From: Candidatus Latescibacterota bacterium
GTDB taxonomy: Bacteria > Latescibacterota > UBA2968 > GCA-2709665
NCBI GenBank assembly: GCA_965222075.1
Contig: OZ244937.1
Span: 736,001 to 800,000 of the forward strand
Length of the DNA: 64,000 nucleotides
Direction of reading: 5' to 3'
In this document: piece after piece, positions 508 to 6,513 of the stretch
Numbering within the stretch: the first letter of the stretch is position 1
Layout: each line of letters begins with the position of its first letter
Program-made: the position numbers and the translations under genes
Notes under the pieces: model-generated
Told to the model about the DNA's origin: nothing
Databases searched by the model: none
Seen by the model: the letters and a program-made list of their open reading frames with translations, nothing else

Positions 508-2040
508 GTGGTTTTGCTGCCGGAGGCTATAGCACGCGCAGTGGCGGTGAACCTGGAGAGCCTGAGCTATTTCTGGCCCGAGGTGATCCTGACGCTTGCG
601 ATCCTGGTCATTGTAGTGGTGGACCTGATCGTGTCCGGGAAGAAGGTGGGGTTGCTGACCGGGCTGACGCTGGCGGCCCTGGGGGTTTGCCTTTTTGCGA
701 TTGTGGGGCTTTACGATGAGGAGCCGCGGGCGCTGTTTATGGGGATGATGGCCTTAGACGGTTTCTCCCTCTTTTTCAAGGCGCTGTTTGTGGTTACCAC
801 CATCGTGGTCACCCTGTTCGGCCTGCAATCTCCGGATATCGACCAGGACCGGATCGGGGAGTTCTACGCGATCTTCCTTTCGGTGGTCCTGGGCGGGTTT
901 CTGATGGCGTCTGCCACGAACCTGCTGATGATGTACCTTTCGCTGGAACTGGTCAGTGTGCCTTCGTTTATTCTGGCCGGATACCAGAAGAAGGTCCGGC
1001 GGTCCAACGAGGCGGCCCTGAAGTACGTGGTCTACGGAGGGGTCTCGTCGGGGATTATGCTCTACGGGTTCTCCCTGATTTACGGGCTGACCGGAACGCT
1101 GGATATCCACCAGATCGCCGCGCAGCTGGGCAGGACGACACCGTATAGTCTGACGCTCTTTTTGGGGGCGACGTTTGCGATGGCGGGCTTTGGCTACAAG
1201 GTGGCGTCGGTGCCGTTCCACTTCTGGTGCCCCGATGTGTACGAGGGCGCGCCCACGCCGGTGACGGCCTTTCTGTCCGTAGCGCCAAAGGCGGCCGGAT
1301 TTGCCATGCTGTCCCGGTTTTTTTACATGGGGCTGTCGGCCTACAACGGAACGTCGGGGCAGGCGCTGGACGTGGACTGGCAGTACCTGCTGGCCCTGAT
1401 TTCGGCCTGTACGATGACCCTGGGCAACCTGACGGCGATCTGGCAGAACAACCTGAAGCGGCTCCTGGCCTATTCGAGCATCGCCCATGCGGGATATATT
1501 ATGATGGGTGTGGTGATGCTGTCCGCGTCGGGATTGATGGCGGTGATGTTCTACACCGCGGCCTATCTGTTTATGAACCTGGGGGCGTTCCTGGTGGTCC
1601 TGGTGCTTGCGGTGCGGATCGGGAGCGAGGATATCAGGGATTACAAAGGCCTGGGCTGGCGGTCTCCCTGGATTGCGCTGGCGATGACGGCGTTTCTCCT
1701 GTCGCTGACCGGAATTCCGCCTACGGCGGGTTTCGTAGGGAAGGTCTACCTGTTTTCTGCGGTGATCGAGGGGGGGCTCTACTGGCTGGCGGTGGTGGGC
1801 GCGTTGAACAGCGCGGTGTCACTCTACTATTATGCCAGGATTTTCCGGACGATGTACCTGGAGGCCCCGGCCGTTGAGGAACGCGTGACGATTCCCACGT
1901 TCGCCACGGTGACGCTGGCCGTGCTTTTTGCAGGTACGATACTGCTGGGGGTCTACTGGGCGCCGCTGGCGGACCTGGCCGACCGGTCGACTGCGCTGTT
2001 TATGGGGAGTATCGAAGGTGCGCAGGCGGTGGTGAAATAG
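508..2040 (+). CDS. nuoN: NADH-quinone oxidoreductase subunit N
   Basis: Hydrophobic 510 aa; motifs SNEAALKY, VPFHFWCPDVYEGAPTP, KRLLAYSSIAHAGY, SLTGIPPTAGF. Confidence 0.95.
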   Translation: MVLLPEAIARAVAVNLESLSYFWPEVILTLAILVIVVVDLIVSGKKVGLLTGLTLAALGVCLFAIVGLYDEEPRALFMGMMALDGFSLFFKALFVVTTIVVTLFGLQSPDIDQDRIGEFYAIFLSVVLGGFLMASATNLLMMYLSLELVSVPSFILAGYQKKVRRSNEAALKYVVYGGVSSGIMLYGFSLIYGLTGTLDIHQIAAQLGRTTPYSLTLFLGATFAMAGFGYKVASVPFHFWCPDVYEGAPTPVTAFLSVAPKAAGFAMLSRFFYMGLSAYNGTSGQALDVDWQYLLALISACTMTLGNLTAIWQNNLKRLLAYSSIAHAGYIMMGVVMLSASGLMAVMFYTAAYLFMNLGAFLVVLVLAVRIGSEDIRDYKGLGWRSPWIALAMTAFLLSLTGIPPTAGFVGKVYLFSAVIEGGLYWLAVVGALNSAVSLYYYARIFRTMYLEAPAVEERVTIPTFATVTLAVLFAGTILLGVYWAPLADLADRSTALFMGSIEGAQAVVK

Positions 2041-2064
2041 GCAAAGGGCGATATGCACAAATCT

Positions 2065-2098
2065 AAAGGCGCTGCGGGTGACCGCAGCGCCTTTTTTT
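2065..2098. terminator. Intrinsic terminator, probably bidirectional
   Basis: AAAGGCGCTGCGG-GTGA-CCGCAGCGCCTTT followed by a T-tract, between convergent genes. Confidence 0.85.
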
Positions 2099-2115
2099 AG
2101 AGGACGAGAACGGTG

Positions 2116-2544
2116 TCATCTTCCCCAGGCTTTGCCGCTTGGGCTTTGCCTCTTTTTCTTTTTCGGAAGGTCTTTTTTTTCTACGACAAATCCGACGAGG
2201 CGCTTTTGTCCCAGCTTTTTGAGGTAGGCCAGGAGGGAGATTTCGGCCTCTTTCGCGTTGAGTTTGTGGGTTTCGCTGAGGTTTCGGATCATGGCCTCTA
2301 CCGTGGTGCGACCGTCGCATATCTCCCAGACCTGGGTGCCGAGTTCGTCCAGGACGAGGGTGCGATTTTCGGGGATCCAGAAGATTTTGGAGAGGATCCG
2401 GACCTTCAGGCTGTCTCCCCGTTTGAGGGTGATGGCCACTTCGCCGTCTTCGTTTTTCTCCCATTCCAGCTGGTCGTTGCGGGCCGGCTTGGAATTGAGC
2501 ATGGCCTCCCGGCCGATGTTGGGTTGCTTTTTTTTGAACAACAA
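2116..2544 (-). CDS. PqqD-family (RRE-like) protein
   Basis: LDELGTQVWEICDGRTTVEAMI...LLAYLKKL is the typical PqqD winged-helix signature. Confidence 0.8.
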   Translation of the reverse strand: MLFKKKQPNIGREAMLNSKPARNDQLEWEKNEDGEVAITLKRGDSLKVRILSKIFWIPENRTLVLDELGTQVWEICDGRTTVEAMIRNLSETHKLNAKEAEISLLAYLKKLGQKRLVGFVVEKKDLPKKKKRQSPSGKAWGR

Positions 2545-2615
2545 GACAATACGCTCCCGATATAAGTTGCACCCATGATCTATCGTTCTGCCAGGCTTTC
2601 TGGCATCACCATATG

Positions 2616-2644
2616 AATTTACAGTTGTTGTGAATTTCTGTCAA
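2616..2644 (-). promoter_or_regulatory. Sigma70 promoter for the PqqD-family gene
   Basis: TTGACA-N17-TAAATT on the minus strand. Confidence 0.6.
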
Positions 2645-2671
2645 GCCAAAGGGGCCGTCAAAAAATAGTGG

Positions 2672-2700
2672 TTGACGGATGCACTTTTCCGGGTTATTTT
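2672..2700 (+). promoter_or_regulatory. Sigma70 promoter for the leader peptide and leuS-like gene
   Basis: TTGACG-N17-TATTTT. Confidence 0.55.
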
Positions 2701-2728
2701 CTTTGAACACCACTCTCTGGGGTATTCG

Positions 2729-2899
2729 ATGATGCAAATAGATCGTGCAGGCACAACCCTCCGGATGGATATACCAGCTGCGCCGGCAGCGCCGTGTGTT
2801 CGGTTCGGATGGACCCTCCTTCTTAGCGGTGGGCTCCTCGGTCTTTGCGCCGGGGGCTCTGCAGGGGGAGAGGCGTGCCTTAGACCGTTCGTATTTTAA
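2729..2899 (+). CDS. Putative leucine-rich leader peptide (alternative starts 2732 or 2765)
   Basis: ...VRFGWTLLLSGGLLGL...; Leu codons CTC CTT CTT..CTC CTC..CTT; sits between a promoter and a terminator upstream of the leuS-like gene. Confidence 0.6.
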   Translation: MMQIDRAGTTLRMDIPAAPAAPCVRFGWTLLLSGGLLGLCAGGSAGGEACLRPFVF

Positions 2900-2923
2900 C
2901 CGTTTTGGACACCTATTCTTTTT

Positions 2924-2961
2924 GCCCGCTGCCGAGCCCGATCGGTAGCGGGTTTTTATTT
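2924..2961 (+). terminator. Attenuator-type terminator upstream of the leuS-like start
   Basis: GCCCGCTGCCGA-loop-TCGGTAGCGGGT followed by TTTTATTT, about 20 nt before the ATG at 2981. Confidence 0.75.
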
Positions 2962-2980
2962 GTTTCCCGGGAGGTTTCTC

Positions 2981-4594
2981 ATGGTTGCCGAATACGATTT
3001 CCAGAAGATCGAACGGAAGTGGCAGGAGGTCTGGCGGCGAGAGGGGACGCAGCAGGATGGGAGCGGCGCAAAACCGCAGGGCGTACCCACAGGAGCCGAC
3101 GCGATCCACCCTCTGATCGGTGTGCGGGTGCCGGTCTGGATTGCCGACTATGTGCTGATGGACTACGGGACCGGGGCGGTGATGGGGGTGCCGGCGCACG
3201 ACGCCCGGGATTTTGCGTTTGCACAGGCCTACCGGCTGCCGGTGGTGCGGGTCATCGATGGGGGAGGGCGCCTCGAAGCGGGTCTGCCCTATGAAGGGGA
3301 GGGAACGCTGGTGGGGTCGGGGCGGTTTGACGGGATGGGGAACCGGGATGGGGCAGCGGGGATTGTCGAGGCGCTGGAAGCGCAGGGGGTTGGCGGTAAG
3401 GCGGTGAGCTACCGGCTGAGGGACTGGTGCATCTCCCGGCAGCGCTACTGGGGGACGCCGATTCCGATTGTGGACTGCGTCCGCTGCGGCGAGCTACCCG
3501 TGCCGGAGGCGGATCTGCCGGTCCGCCTGCCTCACCTGGTCGATTTTCGGCCCGACGGCCGATCGCCCCTGGCACGGGCGCCGGGGTTTGTGCAGACGGT
3601 GTGTCCGCAATGCGGTGGGACAGCCGGGCGGGAGTGCGATACCATGACGGGGTTCGTGTGTTCGTCCTGGTACTTCCTGAGGTTCGTCTCGCCTGAGGAA
3701 GGACAGCGGCCGTTCGATCCGGAGTTGGTGCGCCGGTGGCTGCCGGTGGCGCATTATATCGGCGGGAAGGAACACGCGGTGGGACACCTGCTCTACGCGC
3801 GTTTTATGACGCGGTTTCTGAAGGATATCGGGTGGGTGGACATCGAGGAGCCCTTTGTGCGCCTGTTCAACCAGGGAGTGGTCTACAAGGACGGGGCGAA
3901 GATGTCCAAGTCTAAGGGAAACGTGGTGGGGGTGGACGAGATGGTAGAGATCTATGGCGCGGATACGGCGCGGGTGTTTGTGCTGTTTGCCACGCCGCCG
4001 GACCGGGATATGGCGTGGAGCGATACGGGCGTGAAAGGGATCTTCCGGTTTTTGACGCGGGTGTGGCGGGCGGTACTGGGTGAAGAGGGAAGATCCGGTG
4101 TGGAGCGGGAAGAGGGGCTCGTGCGTGTGACCCACCGCACCATCCGGGCGGTGACGGAAGATTTGGAGCGGATGCACTTTAATACGGCGATCAGCCGGCT
4201 GATGGAACTGACAACGGCGATCCAGCAGGCGGTTCAGGCAGGAGGGAATTGGACCGGGGTCCGGGAGGCTCGCGAGGCCCTGGTGTCGATCCTGGCGCCG
4301 TTTGCACCTCATATTGCGGAGGAGCTGTGGCGCCTGTTGGGAAAGTCGGGAAGCGTACACCGGACGCCGTGGCCGTCCTACGATCCGGCGCTGGCTGCGG
4401 AAGAGGTGGTCACGGTGGTGGTGCAGGTCAATGGGAAGGTGCGGGACCGTTTCCAGGTGCCTGCCGGCACGCCGGAGGAGGCGCTGAGGCGGAGGGTCGA
4501 GGGCCGGAAACGGGTGCAGGTGCACCTAAGGGGACGAAAGGTGTTGCGGACGGTGGTGATACCGGATCGGCTGGTGAATTTCGTGGTAGCGTAG
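2981..4594 (+). CDS. leuS: Leucine-tRNA ligase-like protein, internally deleted (no HIGH motif), 537 aa
   Basis: YDFQKIERKWQ N-terminus, GTGAVMGVPAHD, RLRDWCISRQRYWG, KMSKS, APFAPHIAEELW, VQVNGKVR; SD GGAGG. Confidence 0.85.
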   Translation: MVAEYDFQKIERKWQEVWRREGTQQDGSGAKPQGVPTGADAIHPLIGVRVPVWIADYVLMDYGTGAVMGVPAHDARDFAFAQAYRLPVVRVIDGGGRLEAGLPYEGEGTLVGSGRFDGMGNRDGAAGIVEALEAQGVGGKAVSYRLRDWCISRQRYWGTPIPIVDCVRCGELPVPEADLPVRLPHLVDFRPDGRSPLARAPGFVQTVCPQCGGTAGRECDTMTGFVCSSWYFLRFVSPEEGQRPFDPELVRRWLPVAHYIGGKEHAVGHLLYARFMTRFLKDIGWVDIEEPFVRLFNQGVVYKDGAKMSKSKGNVVGVDEMVEIYGADTARVFVLFATPPDRDMAWSDTGVKGIFRFLTRVWRAVLGEEGRSGVEREEGLVRVTHRTIRAVTEDLERMHFNTAISRLMELTTAIQQAVQAGGNWTGVREAREALVSILAPFAPHIAEELWRLLGKSGSVHRTPWPSYDPALAAEEVVTVVVQVNGKVRDRFQVPAGTPEEALRRRVEGRKRVQVHLRGRKVLRTVVIPDRLVNFVVA

Positions 4595-4646
4595 ACATAA
4601 GAATCCCAAACGGATCGGCGTTGGTGCTGATCGTAACACCGGGGCA

Positions 4647-5606
4647 TCATACCTCTTGCGTTGTTTCTGCATGGCAGAGAACGTTCCGGCAGCACGCCTC
4701 GATGTCCGGGGCGTCGTCCGCTTTTTTCCAGTAGGACTGAACGACGTAGATCTTGTTGGATTCCGGGCAGGCCCAGACGCGGCCGTTCAGGTGGAGGCGG
4801 GGTCTCACGTGCCAGAAAGGGAGGGGGTGCAGAAGGGCGCGCCAGCGGCTTTTGGGCCTGCCCTGCACAAGGATGCCCGGATGGCCTGCTGTGGTGGCTT
4901 CTTCGGTCTCAAAGACCAGGTGACGGAGATCTTTCCGGAAAAAGTCCCGGTACCAGTCTGCGTGCGTGCGGTCCTTAAGGAGTGTTTTGGCCAGGCTGAG
5001 GCGGTCGACCTGCAGGGTGTTCCTGCCCTGCTCGAAGCGGAAGCAGAGATGGCCCGACTTGAGGTCGTAGGTCTCCAGGGCATAGCCGGGGAGAGAGGTG
5101 AACACCAGGTCGAAGAGCGCCCAGGTGTGAGGCCCGTCGGGAGGGCTGTCTTCAAGGGAGTTGAACAGGCGGGCCAGGAAGTCGGCCATGTCTTCGTCGG
5201 GACGGCCCATGATTCTGAGAAAGAGGAAGCGGTCGGAGGCCGAGCTGTAGCAGGTCAGGGTGTAGACCCGGGCGTCGGACTCCCAGATGAAATACTCCAT
5301 CGGGTGCATGTCGGGCAGGTTGAGCCCGGGACACTCGGCGTTGCGTTCAACGTGGAGGCCTGTCTTCTGTTTCTGGGCGGTTTTGGCCAGGCCTTCTACA
5401 AAGCGGTCTACAATCAGGGTTATCCGATTGTCTCCGTGGGCCTCCCGCCACTCTATTTCCATACGGATGGTCGTCGCGTCGTCGAGCCGGACGCTGCCGG
5501 ATTTACGGTCCCCGACGATCTTTCCAGGATTCCATTCGGCCGGGATGTCGAGGCGAATGCCGTGCCAGCCGAAGGGTACCCAGTGGGCATAGCGCAAGCG
5601 TTTCAC
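4647..5606 (-). CDS. Hypothetical protein, 319 aa
   Basis: Long ORF with globular composition; own TTGACA-N17-TACTTT promoter at 5660-5688. Confidence 0.7.
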   Translation of the reverse strand: MKRLRYAHWVPFGWHGIRLDIPAEWNPGKIVGDRKSGSVRLDDATTIRMEIEWREAHGDNRITLIVDRFVEGLAKTAQKQKTGLHVERNAECPGLNLPDMHPMEYFIWESDARVYTLTCYSSASDRFLFLRIMGRPDEDMADFLARLFNSLEDSPPDGPHTWALFDLVFTSLPGYALETYDLKSGHLCFRFEQGRNTLQVDRLSLAKTLLKDRTHADWYRDFFRKDLRHLVFETEEATTAGHPGILVQGRPKSRWRALLHPLPFWHVRPRLHLNGRVWACPESNKIYVVQSYWKKADDAPDIEACCRNVLCHAETTQEV

Positions 5607-5783
5607 GTGAGGCGGTCTCTAAGTAAAGGTTTTTAAGGAGGTTCTAACCAGCGATCCTAAAAGTATATACGCACGGGGGGGGTGTCAAGAGATTTCGGGG
5701 TTGGGGGTGGTTTTCGTGAGCAAGATGGTGCGTTTAAAAGAGAAATCCAGGGGGAGGTTATGTGCGGTCTACGAAATTAATGC

Positions 5784-5836
5784 TTGACGAATGAACTAAT
5801 GTGCAGTATATTGCATTATACTAATGTGCAGTATAT
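5784..5836 (+). promoter_or_regulatory. lexA promoter with two candidate LexA operators
   Basis: TTGACG-N17-TATATT; 17-bp direct repeat ACTAATGTGCAGTATAT at 5795 and 5820. Confidence 0.8.
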
Positions 5837-5883
5837 CCCGCTTTTCAGATCACGGTTCAACTGATCTCAAGGAGGTGTTGCCC

Positions 5884-6513
5884 ATGCGCAAGAAATTGAC
5901 CGACAGACAGCAGGAAATTTACGGGTTTATCGCCCAGACGATCCGCGATAAGAGGTTTCCGCCCACGATCCGGGAGATTATGGAGGCCTTTCAGATCGCC
6001 TCCACCAACGGGGTGAGGACCACGCTGGCTGCGCTGGAGAAGAAGGGGTTTATCAAACGGCGGCCGATGCTTTCCCGGGGCATCGAGTTGACCGATTATG
6101 TGGAACGCGATCTGCCTGCATCCCTTGAGATTCGGGAGATCCCGGTGATCGGGCGGGTGGCCGCAGGGGAGCCGATCCTGGCCGCGGAAAATGTGGAGGG
6201 GACGGTGGCCGTGGACCGCTCGTTTGTGCGTTCAGACGAGGTCTTTGCGCTGCGGGTGAGGGGAGAAAGCATGCGGAATGCCGGGATTATGGACGGCGAC
6301 TACGTGCTGGCCCGGCAGCAGCCGACGGCAACTGCCGGAGATATTGTGGTGGCGGTGATCGGGGAGGAGGCCACGGTTAAGCGCTACTACCCGGAAGGGC
6401 GGAAGGTGCGGCTGATGCCGGAGAACGAGATGTTTGAGCCGATCGTGGTGGACCCCCGGCAGGACGCGTTCCGGATCGCGGGCAAGATCGTGGGGTTGAT
6501 GCGGCGGTTCTGA
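5884..6513 (+). CDS. lexA: SOS repressor LexA
   Basis: HTH LTDRQ..PPTIREI, Ala-Gly cleavage site in VAAG, catalytic GESM and ATVK. Confidence 0.95.
   Translation: MRKKLTDRQQEIYGFIAQTIRDKRFPPTIREIMEAFQIASTNGVRTTLAALEKKGFIKRRPMLSRGIELTDYVERDLPASLEIREIPVIGRVAAGEPILAAENVEGTVAVDRSFVRSDEVFALRVRGESMRNAGIMDGDYVLARQQPTATAGDIVVAVIGEEATVKRYYPEGRKVRLMPENEMFEPIVVDPRQDAFRIAGKIVGLMRRF

Follow-up and report, generated by a model that had tools for sequence, protein, structure and literature searches.

A shortened gene for leucyl-tRNA synthetase (LeuRS), here called leuS2, lies near the start of a 64,000-nucleotide (nt) stretch of Candidatus Latescibacterota bacterium contig OZ244937.1 (positions 736,001 to 800,000 of the forward strand; this stretch is referred to as the window, and positions are counted from its first letter). 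Our analysis indicates that leuS2 is probably a young pseudogene, that is, an allele of an accessory second LeuRS that was inactivated by an in-frame deletion and is enzymatically dead. The frame is open throughout (Table 1) and its translation begins MVAEYDFQKIERKWQEVW. Alignments with the canonical LeuRS and with full-length orthologues showed that residues 1-23 (MVAEYDFQKIERKWQEVWRREGT) are fused directly onto QQDGSGAKPQGVPTGADAIHP, and that the window is without exactly 786 bp, or 262 codons (24-285 of the orthologue). An earlier reading made from the letters alone (the sequence-only reading) had described a clean, in-frame loss of about 270 residues; the loss is indeed clean and in frame, with no stops, and its exact size lies near that estimate.

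The best database match to the truncated protein, P0003 (799 residues), was 96% identical over 97% of the query; its first 23 residues are those of the truncated protein, and a normal HIGH half comes next. We surveyed the window's genome and 40 relatives for this type of paralogue, and found it in three of the 41 genomes. It is truncated in the window's genome, present as a full-length 799-residue orthologue at the collinear locus (L009) of a genome of the same genus (G001), and present as a full-length 801-residue orthologue, again at the collinear locus (L010), in another genus of the same family (G004). Matches in other genomes were 40-48% identical and represent the canonical enzyme or more distant genes, and one of the 41 genomes, which is 82% complete, gave no match to the leuS2 query. 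The flanks are collinear from nuoN to the downstream genes, with nucleotide identities of 94-97% with G001 and 85-87% with G004. The deletion was found only in the window's lineage, and the two closest relatives retain the whole gene. Intact orthologues at the same locus (G001 and G004), together with the loss of the HIGH half, are what a young pseudogene would be expected to show.

DNA alignment revealed the hexamer GGACGC at both edges of the 786-bp stretch in G001 (L009). Such an arrangement is typical of deletions that arise by replication slippage or illegitimate recombination between short direct repeats. Based on the alignment of P0003, the deleted part corresponds approximately to residues 23-293 of the Thermus thermophilus LeuRS (1h3n), a region that we take to contain the N-terminal Rossmann half and its HIGH-type motif, zinc module ZN1, and the beginning of the CP1 editing domain, including TTRPDT. 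The edges are set off from the domain borders, and two half-domains remain, one of the Rossmann fold and one of CP1. We therefore propose the following sequence of events. The canonical leuS would serve translation, and a few related lineages carry an extra, full-length LeuRS2 of a distinct clade. Slippage or illegitimate recombination between the GGACGC hexamers 786 bp apart would then have removed codons 24-285. With these codons would have gone the first Rossmann half, including its HIGH-type motif, as well as ZN1 and the initial third of CP1 with its Thr-rich motif. A loss of 786 bp, being divisible by three, would have left the frame open (the chance of this for any deletion length being one in three), and too little time would have passed since the deletion for stops or frameshifts to accumulate.

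What was lost and what was kept can be described at the level of motifs. The truncated protein has lost its HIGH-type motif (HMGH) along with GWDAFG, the first cluster of Cys residues and FTTRPDT. In the orthologues the HIGH-type signature reads PSGPLHMGH and occupies residues ~44-52, within the deleted codons, and the protein is without a complete CP1 as the Thr-rich motif of that domain was deleted. The first helix (residues 7-22 form a helix in the AlphaFold2 model) continues directly into the second half of CP1, as the sequence-only reading had it, and the KMSKS loop (residues 307-311, nt 3899-3913), four Cys residues (166, 169, 208 and 211) and the anticodon-binding and C-terminal domains are intact. 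The C-terminal part aligns, via P0003, to residues 635-876 of the T. thermophilus enzyme. In Pfam searches, positions 56-184 of the 185 of the editing domain PF13603 matched residues 8-132, and both the KMSKS-bearing end of PF00133 and PF08264 were detected. The bacterial leuS model TIGR00396 gave 531.8 bits and did not reach its cut-off of 548.4; it matched only from about profile position 283 onward (best stretch 283-569 of 843; locus 285-842). The archaeal model TIGR00395 gave 107 bits against 531.8 for TIGR00396, which identifies leuS2 as a bacterial-type gene. An in-frame TTG at 2960 lies upstream of the leuS2 ATG, and the orthologues begin at the ATG. The truncated frame, scoring just below the leuS cut-off, could be labelled leucine--tRNA ligase in an annotation. 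Judging from the architecture of class I synthetases, no aminoacylation is expected from it because the HIGH half of the Rossmann fold is gone, in agreement with the earlier proposal that the protein should be unable to aminoacylate alone. We infer that both aminoacylation and editing have been lost, and that the deletion is recent.

The window lies in a closed genome, a single contig of 5.36 Mb with a marker-gene completeness of 97.6%. A canonical leuS is present at C1:1379204-1381633. It encodes 815 residues, scores 974.5 bits against TIGR00396 and has the HIGH, TTRPDT and KMSKS motifs, and it shares 48% identity with the truncated protein. Because the genome encodes this separate, normal leuS, the truncated gene is a paralogue, as had been stated from the sequence, and not the working enzyme of the cell. 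The sequence-only reading had also offered that the protein could be one half of a new split enzyme; the HIGH-bearing half would then be encoded elsewhere, as in the Aquifex alpha/beta LeuRS. Its architecture alone, a C-terminal part with KMSKS and tRNA-binding domains, speaks for such an arrangement. However, whole-genome searches for a second copy, made with the deleted 262-residue piece and with its 780-bp DNA, returned only the canonical leuS (47% amino acid identity; 70% over 149 nt) and IleRS-, ValRS- and MetRS-like genes. A genome scan with the family model turned up no stand-alone N-terminal piece of a LeuRS, and the break falls inside CP1 and the Rossmann fold rather than at a domain border. 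With neither protein nor DNA searches of the whole genome yielding a separate gene for the missing part, a split enzyme is as good as ruled out.

We then considered whether the deletion is an assembly artefact, either a collapsed repeat or a chimeric join, as might be suspected from the 6-bp repeat at the junction and a metagenome-like setting with mixed strains. The public sequencing runs in which the stretch occurs were metagenomes of sponge, coral and marine origin, together with runs of three coded organisms, and in six runs of three studies 0.97-1.00 of the sampled words were present. Contigs of four runs, three of them among these six, were compared with the stretch. A contig of run X19 (record 9, 3913 bp) spans the junction with 0 differences, covering 2400-3844, and a contig of run X20 (record 17, 8653 bp) does so with 0 differences, covering 2400-4700; X20 may be the source of the assembly. 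The deleted allele was the only form seen in these two runs. In run X21, two long contigs (depths 43.2 and 30.8) stop exactly at 3050 and 3045, a break at the junction that could be taken to favour an artefact, and are joined only by a 54-nt piece (3021-3074) with a depth of 10.2. This is the expected span of junction-specific 31-mers given the 6-bp repeat, and because the length fits we read the break as a branch in the assembly graph, in which deleted and undeleted alleles would be present in one sample as a segregating polymorphism; the letters of the other branch were unseen. In run X1 (share 0.49) only pieces were present, and a 196-nt contig ceases to match at 3050, with 37 more letters beyond that point; it may represent the undeleted form, but this run was not counted as evidence. 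A repeat of 6 bp is far too short to collapse in assembly, the X19 and X20 contigs cross the junction without a difference, and in X21 the joining piece spans it. The junction is real and not a misassembly, because contigs of separately assembled runs bridge it, and an artefact is very improbable.

To compare the predicted folds of the truncated and full-length forms, AlphaFold2 was run on the truncated protein and on P0003 with the same set of 29 homologues. The mean predicted local distance difference test score (pLDDT) was 68.7 for the truncated protein and 88.1 for P0003, with predicted template modelling scores of 0.47 and 0.80, respectively. Residues 21-320 of the truncated model had block means of 32-86, mostly below 65, compared to mostly 80-96 for the matching stretch of P0003. 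The CP1 remnant scored mostly 30-65, whereas its counterpart in the full-length model reached 78-95. Segments 141-161, 221-240, 256-264 and 294-314 fell below 50, and even invariant core motifs did so. Residues ~330-537, on the other hand, were modelled at 83-95. These models hint, without proving it, that no part of the protein other than the anticodon-binding and C-terminal domains would be able to fold alone, and suggest that the N-terminal ~330 residues fold poorly.

Selection on leuS2 was assessed by polarising substitutions with G004 as the outgroup. The window branch carried 8 synonymous and 6 non-synonymous changes, 14 in all, with a ratio of non-synonymous to synonymous rates (dN/dS, or omega) of ~0.26; the corresponding synonymous and non-synonymous counts were 7 and 14 on the G001 branch, and 64 and 53 on the G004 branch. 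Between the intact genes of G001 (L009) and G004 (L010), dN/dS was ~0.11 in the part deleted in the window and 0.32 in the rest. Since these values are low, and lowest in the deleted part, the intact gene is under purifying selection, and the part that was lost matters to it. The branch counts would be expected if the deletion arose late on the branch; they are also compatible with continued constraint on the truncated product, and do not separate the two.

Several observations weigh against leuS2 being simply dead. All 537 codons are open, and neither the start codon nor the ribosome-binding site nor the conserved leader is damaged. The deleted allele is spread over the six runs of three studies, and is hence at least tolerated. 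The omega of the window branch is close to the background of 0.29, with no excess of amino acid changes; neutrality was rejected along the whole window branch (binomial P = 0.012) and marginal along half of it (P = 0.075), and none of the 20 differences from P0003 fell on invariant columns. In addition, pLDDT is no measure of stability. Taken at face value, such features would suit a truncated protein that is functional in a new role, as a tRNA-Leu-binding module with catalytic remnants that acts as a regulator, decoy or protector. The open frame with its intact start and leader, an omega of ~0.26 rather than 1 and the occurrence of the deleted allele in runs from three studies all agree with this, as do the C-terminal ~200 residues modelled at a pLDDT of 83-95, and full-length archaeal LeuRS paralogues that do not aminoacylate still bind tRNA-Leu, according to the available part of the source (PMC9437257). 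Such a role is nonetheless unlikely. The edges of the deletion follow a 6-bp repeat and not domain borders, with the Rossmann fold and CP1 both cut, and ~300 residues lose model confidence relative to the full-length form. The deletion occurs in one lineage only, with the gene kept whole under purifying selection in the two closest relatives, and the apparent coexistence of alleles in X21 suggests a very young variant. With 14 substitutions there is too little power to show constraint. The dedicated regulatory or protective protein of the sequence-only reading thus gives way to a lineage-specific deletion at 6-bp microhomology, at a locus where the closest relatives are full-length; relaxed selection, which that reading had linked to such a deletion, could not be shown, and misassembly, which it had also raised, is countered by the bridging contigs of other public runs.

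A more specific version, in which the deletion allele was kept since its product works, with the C-terminal tRNA-Leu module titrating or protecting tRNA-Leu in a sponge-associated Chloroflexota symbiont under a conserved, possibly leucine-responsive leader, is rather doubtful, and the reading of leuS2 as a regulatory protein is unsupported. If the product did work, a synthetase would have been caught turning into a non-catalytic tRNA-binding protein. It is also conceivable, at a slightly lower probability again, that the loss of LeuRS2 was itself selected, a spare enzyme being costly or error-prone, so that the allele is an adaptive knock-out whose product would still be inactive. The patchy occurrence of LeuRS2, seen in 3 of 41 close genomes and by its motif in 4 of 168 genomes of a phylum sample, indicates a gene that is easily gained and lost, and the deletion allele is the only form in X19 and X20; yet this scenario cannot be told from drift with the present data. 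A young, inactive deletion allele of an accessory LeuRS is probably the correct description of leuS2.

Table 1. Features of the leuS2 locus, with positions in the window.
Feature	Position	Strand	Remarks
Promoter-like site TTGACG-17-TATTTT	2672..2700	+	Consensus scan, pattern match only
56-codon small ORF (MMQIDR...WTLLLSGGLLGLCAGG...RPFVF)	2729..2899	+	Six CTC/CTT Leu codons within ten codons
Strong intrinsic-terminator-like hairpin and T-run	2924..2963	+	12 pairs, 8 of them G-C; ends ~18 nt short of the leuS2 start codon
Truncated leuS2 open reading frame (ORF)	2981..4594	+	ATG start, 537 codons plus stop, no internal stop
First helix of LeuRS, codons 1-23 (MVAEYDFQKIERKWQEVWRREGT)	2981..3049	+	Identical to the N-terminus of P0003 and L009
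Deletion junction, GGACGC	3045..3050	+	One remaining copy of the 6-bp direct repeat; blastn segments overlap here
CP1 editing-domain remnant, second half only	3050..3376	+	GTGAVMGVPAHD kept, TTRPDT strand region gone
C-terminal half of the Rossmann catalytic domain	3413..3913	+	RDWCISRQRYWG, Cys pairs, DTMTGF, GGKEHAVGH, KMSKS; C-terminal part of PF00133
Anticodon-binding and C-terminal tRNA-binding domains, apparently intact	4118..4591	+	PF08264 at residues 380-501, E = 3.2e-24

The gene is preceded by a leader of ~300 nt and, in the window's lineage, is not beside leuA. The window, G001 and G004 share about 72 nt of the leader (roughly 2833-2905) without a difference, although the gene itself is only 87% identical to that of G004, and the terminator-like hairpin is conserved in L009 and L010. 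The small ORF in the leader differs from its counterparts in L009 and L010 by a 9-nt in-frame indel, and its 3' part is nucleotide-identical in all three genomes. It matched no Pfam family and may encode a leader peptide or a small membrane peptide, or nothing at all. Neither a T-box nor any other family of leader RNAs was matched in an Rfam scan of 2000-6000 (E <= 1), which returned weak, chance-level matches at the nuoN terminator and inside the gene. In a simple test, attenuation was modelled by placing a 28-nt ribosome footprint at 12 positions of the small ORF; the terminator hairpin was present in every minimum-energy structure, and no antiterminator formed. Only 1 of 92 leader pairs had changed on both sides, a count from three sequences, two of them near-identical, for which covariation is uninformative. 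Leucine-responsive control, with the induction by leucine starvation suggested by the sequence-only reading, is an open idea for the LeuRS2 family as judged from these features. The adjacency of leuA in other members and the conserved leader with a terminator here speak for it, and the antiterminator test was negative.

A 41-nt segment elsewhere in the genome (G000:C1:2231738-2231778, L126) is 85% identical to the terminator hairpin of the leader, and may be merely a similar terminator. Divergent from leuS2 and adjoining nuoN lies a stand-alone PqqD-like gene (2116-2544, minus strand; 142 residues; PF05402, E = 4.2e-9). PqqD-like proteins are often peptide-binding partners in peptide-modifying systems, and no partner enzyme was seen nearby. 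Convergent with leuS2 is a gene of 319 residues (4647-5606, minus strand) that matched no Pfam family and occupies the same place in G001 (319 residues) and G004 (322 residues). The shadow ORFs of the minus strand (3494-4525 and 2606-3199) and a plus-strand ORF at 4249-4734 likewise matched no Pfam family.

We next placed leuS2 among other LeuRS sequences in a quick tree (LG+G4, 44 rows, among which L017_can and L018_can are wrongly cut ORFs and are to be ignored). The window's gene grouped with P0003-P0012, P0030, L010 and L103, apart from the canonical LeuRS, in a LeuRS2 clade of 13 rows with a Shimodaira-Hasegawa-like approximate likelihood ratio test (SH-aLRT) support of 100, and the canonical LeuRS of the host fell inside a Chloroflexota clade, also with a support of 100. 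This placement suggests that the host belongs to the Chloroflexota; it is probably associated with a sponge or coral. The LeuRS2 clade is rare, its motif DTMTGFVC giving the phylum-sample count of 4 in 168 and the reversed control pattern being found in none of those genomes. When contigs of other genomes were scanned with P0003, leaving out near relatives, only canonical LeuRS of other phyla were among the matches listed, the best at 53%. The sequence-only reading had pointed out that DTMTGF and GGKEHAVGH differ from the canonical motifs. They do, but as the signatures DTMTGF and GGKEH.(V/T)GH are shared, with minor variants, by the window's gene and the clade sequences read (DTMTGI in P0011; GGKEHSVGH or GGKEHATGH in some), they mark the clade and are not a sign of decay in this gene. 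The Lys and Gly of the second signature flank two active-site histidines (residues 525 and 530 of P0003, 263 and 268 of the window's protein) and amount to V539K and L544G in Thermus numbering, positions at which canonical LeuRS has Val/Ile and Leu/Met. These changes, together with DTMTGF in place of DTMDTF, may reflect an altered amino acid pocket or resistance to an inhibitor.

In two distinct metagenome members of the clade, L101 (which encodes P0004) and L103/L122, leuA is directly upstream, with LeuRS2 starting a few bases past the stop of this 2-isopropylmalate synthase gene (L101:1-130; L103:56-845; L122:1607-3155). The adjacency links the spare synthetase to leucine biosynthesis, and no description of a leuA-linked bacterial LeuRS paralogue was found in the open-access literature, in a limited search that is no proof of absence. 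In L122:1607-3145, leuA occupies two frames (1607-2602 and 2609-3145), which is probably a frameshift or a sequencing error; L103, the one other contig that has this gene, begins inside leuA and is without that point. Five members (P0012, P0030, P0013, L102 and L103) have CP1 cleanly swapped for a short linker. These forms (L103:845-2731, L102:1-837, P0012, P0030 and P0013) are 621-629 residues long where complete and have HIGH and KMSKS intact. CP1 was lost more than once, because the CP1-less members do not group together in the tree. Genes in L106 (4402-7023) and L110 (4108-7023) form a sister group and not part of the clade; they encode ~850-970 residues with DTMTTF and GGKEHAVGH, and lie upstream of MlaE and ATP-binding cassette (ABC) transporter genes, not beside leuA. 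L104, L105 and L111 were rejected as members, being of canonical type (DTMDTF or DTMPQW, with GG(V/I)EHAILH).

Comparison with known systems helps to place both the clade and the deletion. P0003 aligns end to end with the Thermus enzyme (824.9 bits) and shares with canonical LeuRS (T. thermophilus 1h3n; Escherichia coli 4aq7) the HMGH, TTRPDT, GTGAVM.VPAHD, KMSKS and four-Cys motifs and the anticodon-binding and C-terminal domains. From mid-CP1 onward the window's gene is complete, but it is without the equivalent of residues ~23-293 of the Thermus protein. Both the LeuRS2 clade and the canonical enzyme of the host are without the leucine-specific insertion. In Bacillus subtilis, thrZ and tyrZ are examples of spare, duplicated synthetase genes that respond to amino acids. 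LeuRS2 resembles these in being a second synthetase gene of some lineages only and in having its own leader, with other clade members situated behind leuA; unlike them, it has no T-box or other Rfam leader match, its copy in the window is truncated and any regulation of it by leucine is hypothetical. The LeuRS of Aquifex aeolicus is a split alpha/beta enzyme, and the window's gene likewise encodes a polypeptide without part of the enzyme, but here no partner gene exists and the break falls elsewhere than the split of the Aquifex enzyme. The LeuRS of Mycoplasma mobile is without the CP1 editing domain. Five LeuRS2 members are also CP1-less and have a whole catalytic core, so in-frame domain loss recurs in the clade; the M. 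mobile enzyme (PMC3643597) serves as their comparison. With HIGH and KMSKS retained, these forms should charge tRNA, in contrast to the window's gene, whose deletion removes HIGH.

Duplicated aminoacyl-tRNA synthetases are discussed in general terms in the accessible portions of PMC9437257 and PMC4787780. The LeuRS-I of Sulfolobaceae and the LeuRS2 of haloarchaea are extra copies whose aminoacylation is lost or very low and which still bind tRNA-Leu, as stated in the excerpts available of PMC9437257 and PMC4005665. Theirs is the kind of role that the sequence-only reading had proposed for the truncated gene. As far as these excerpts go, however, the archaeal proteins are full-length and family-wide, whereas the window's gene is bacterial-type, with a truncation private to one lineage and intact relatives. 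AgnB2 of Agrobacterium radiobacter K84 is, in the available part of PMC5059758, an extra LeuRS for self-immunity with altered residues at the synthetic site. LeuRS2 is likewise an extra LeuRS with altered synthetic-site residues, but no cluster for the biosynthesis of a LeuRS inhibitor was seen beside the window's gene.

The truncated gene itself matters little, as one more accessory synthetase gene under loss. It does provide a clean case of an in-frame deletion that arose through microhomology and after which a long but deceptive open frame remains, with both alleles apparently still coexisting in one sample. The wider value lies in the parent LeuRS2 family, which is rare and combines changed active-site residues, adjacency to leuA in some members, a conserved leader at the locus studied here and repeated loss of the editing domain. 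On a further and likewise rather doubtful reading, the clade as a whole would be a spare synthetase linked to leucine biosynthesis, with a remodelled amino acid pocket and a dispensable editing function, and it is possible that the family acts as a starvation-time or low-fidelity LeuRS.

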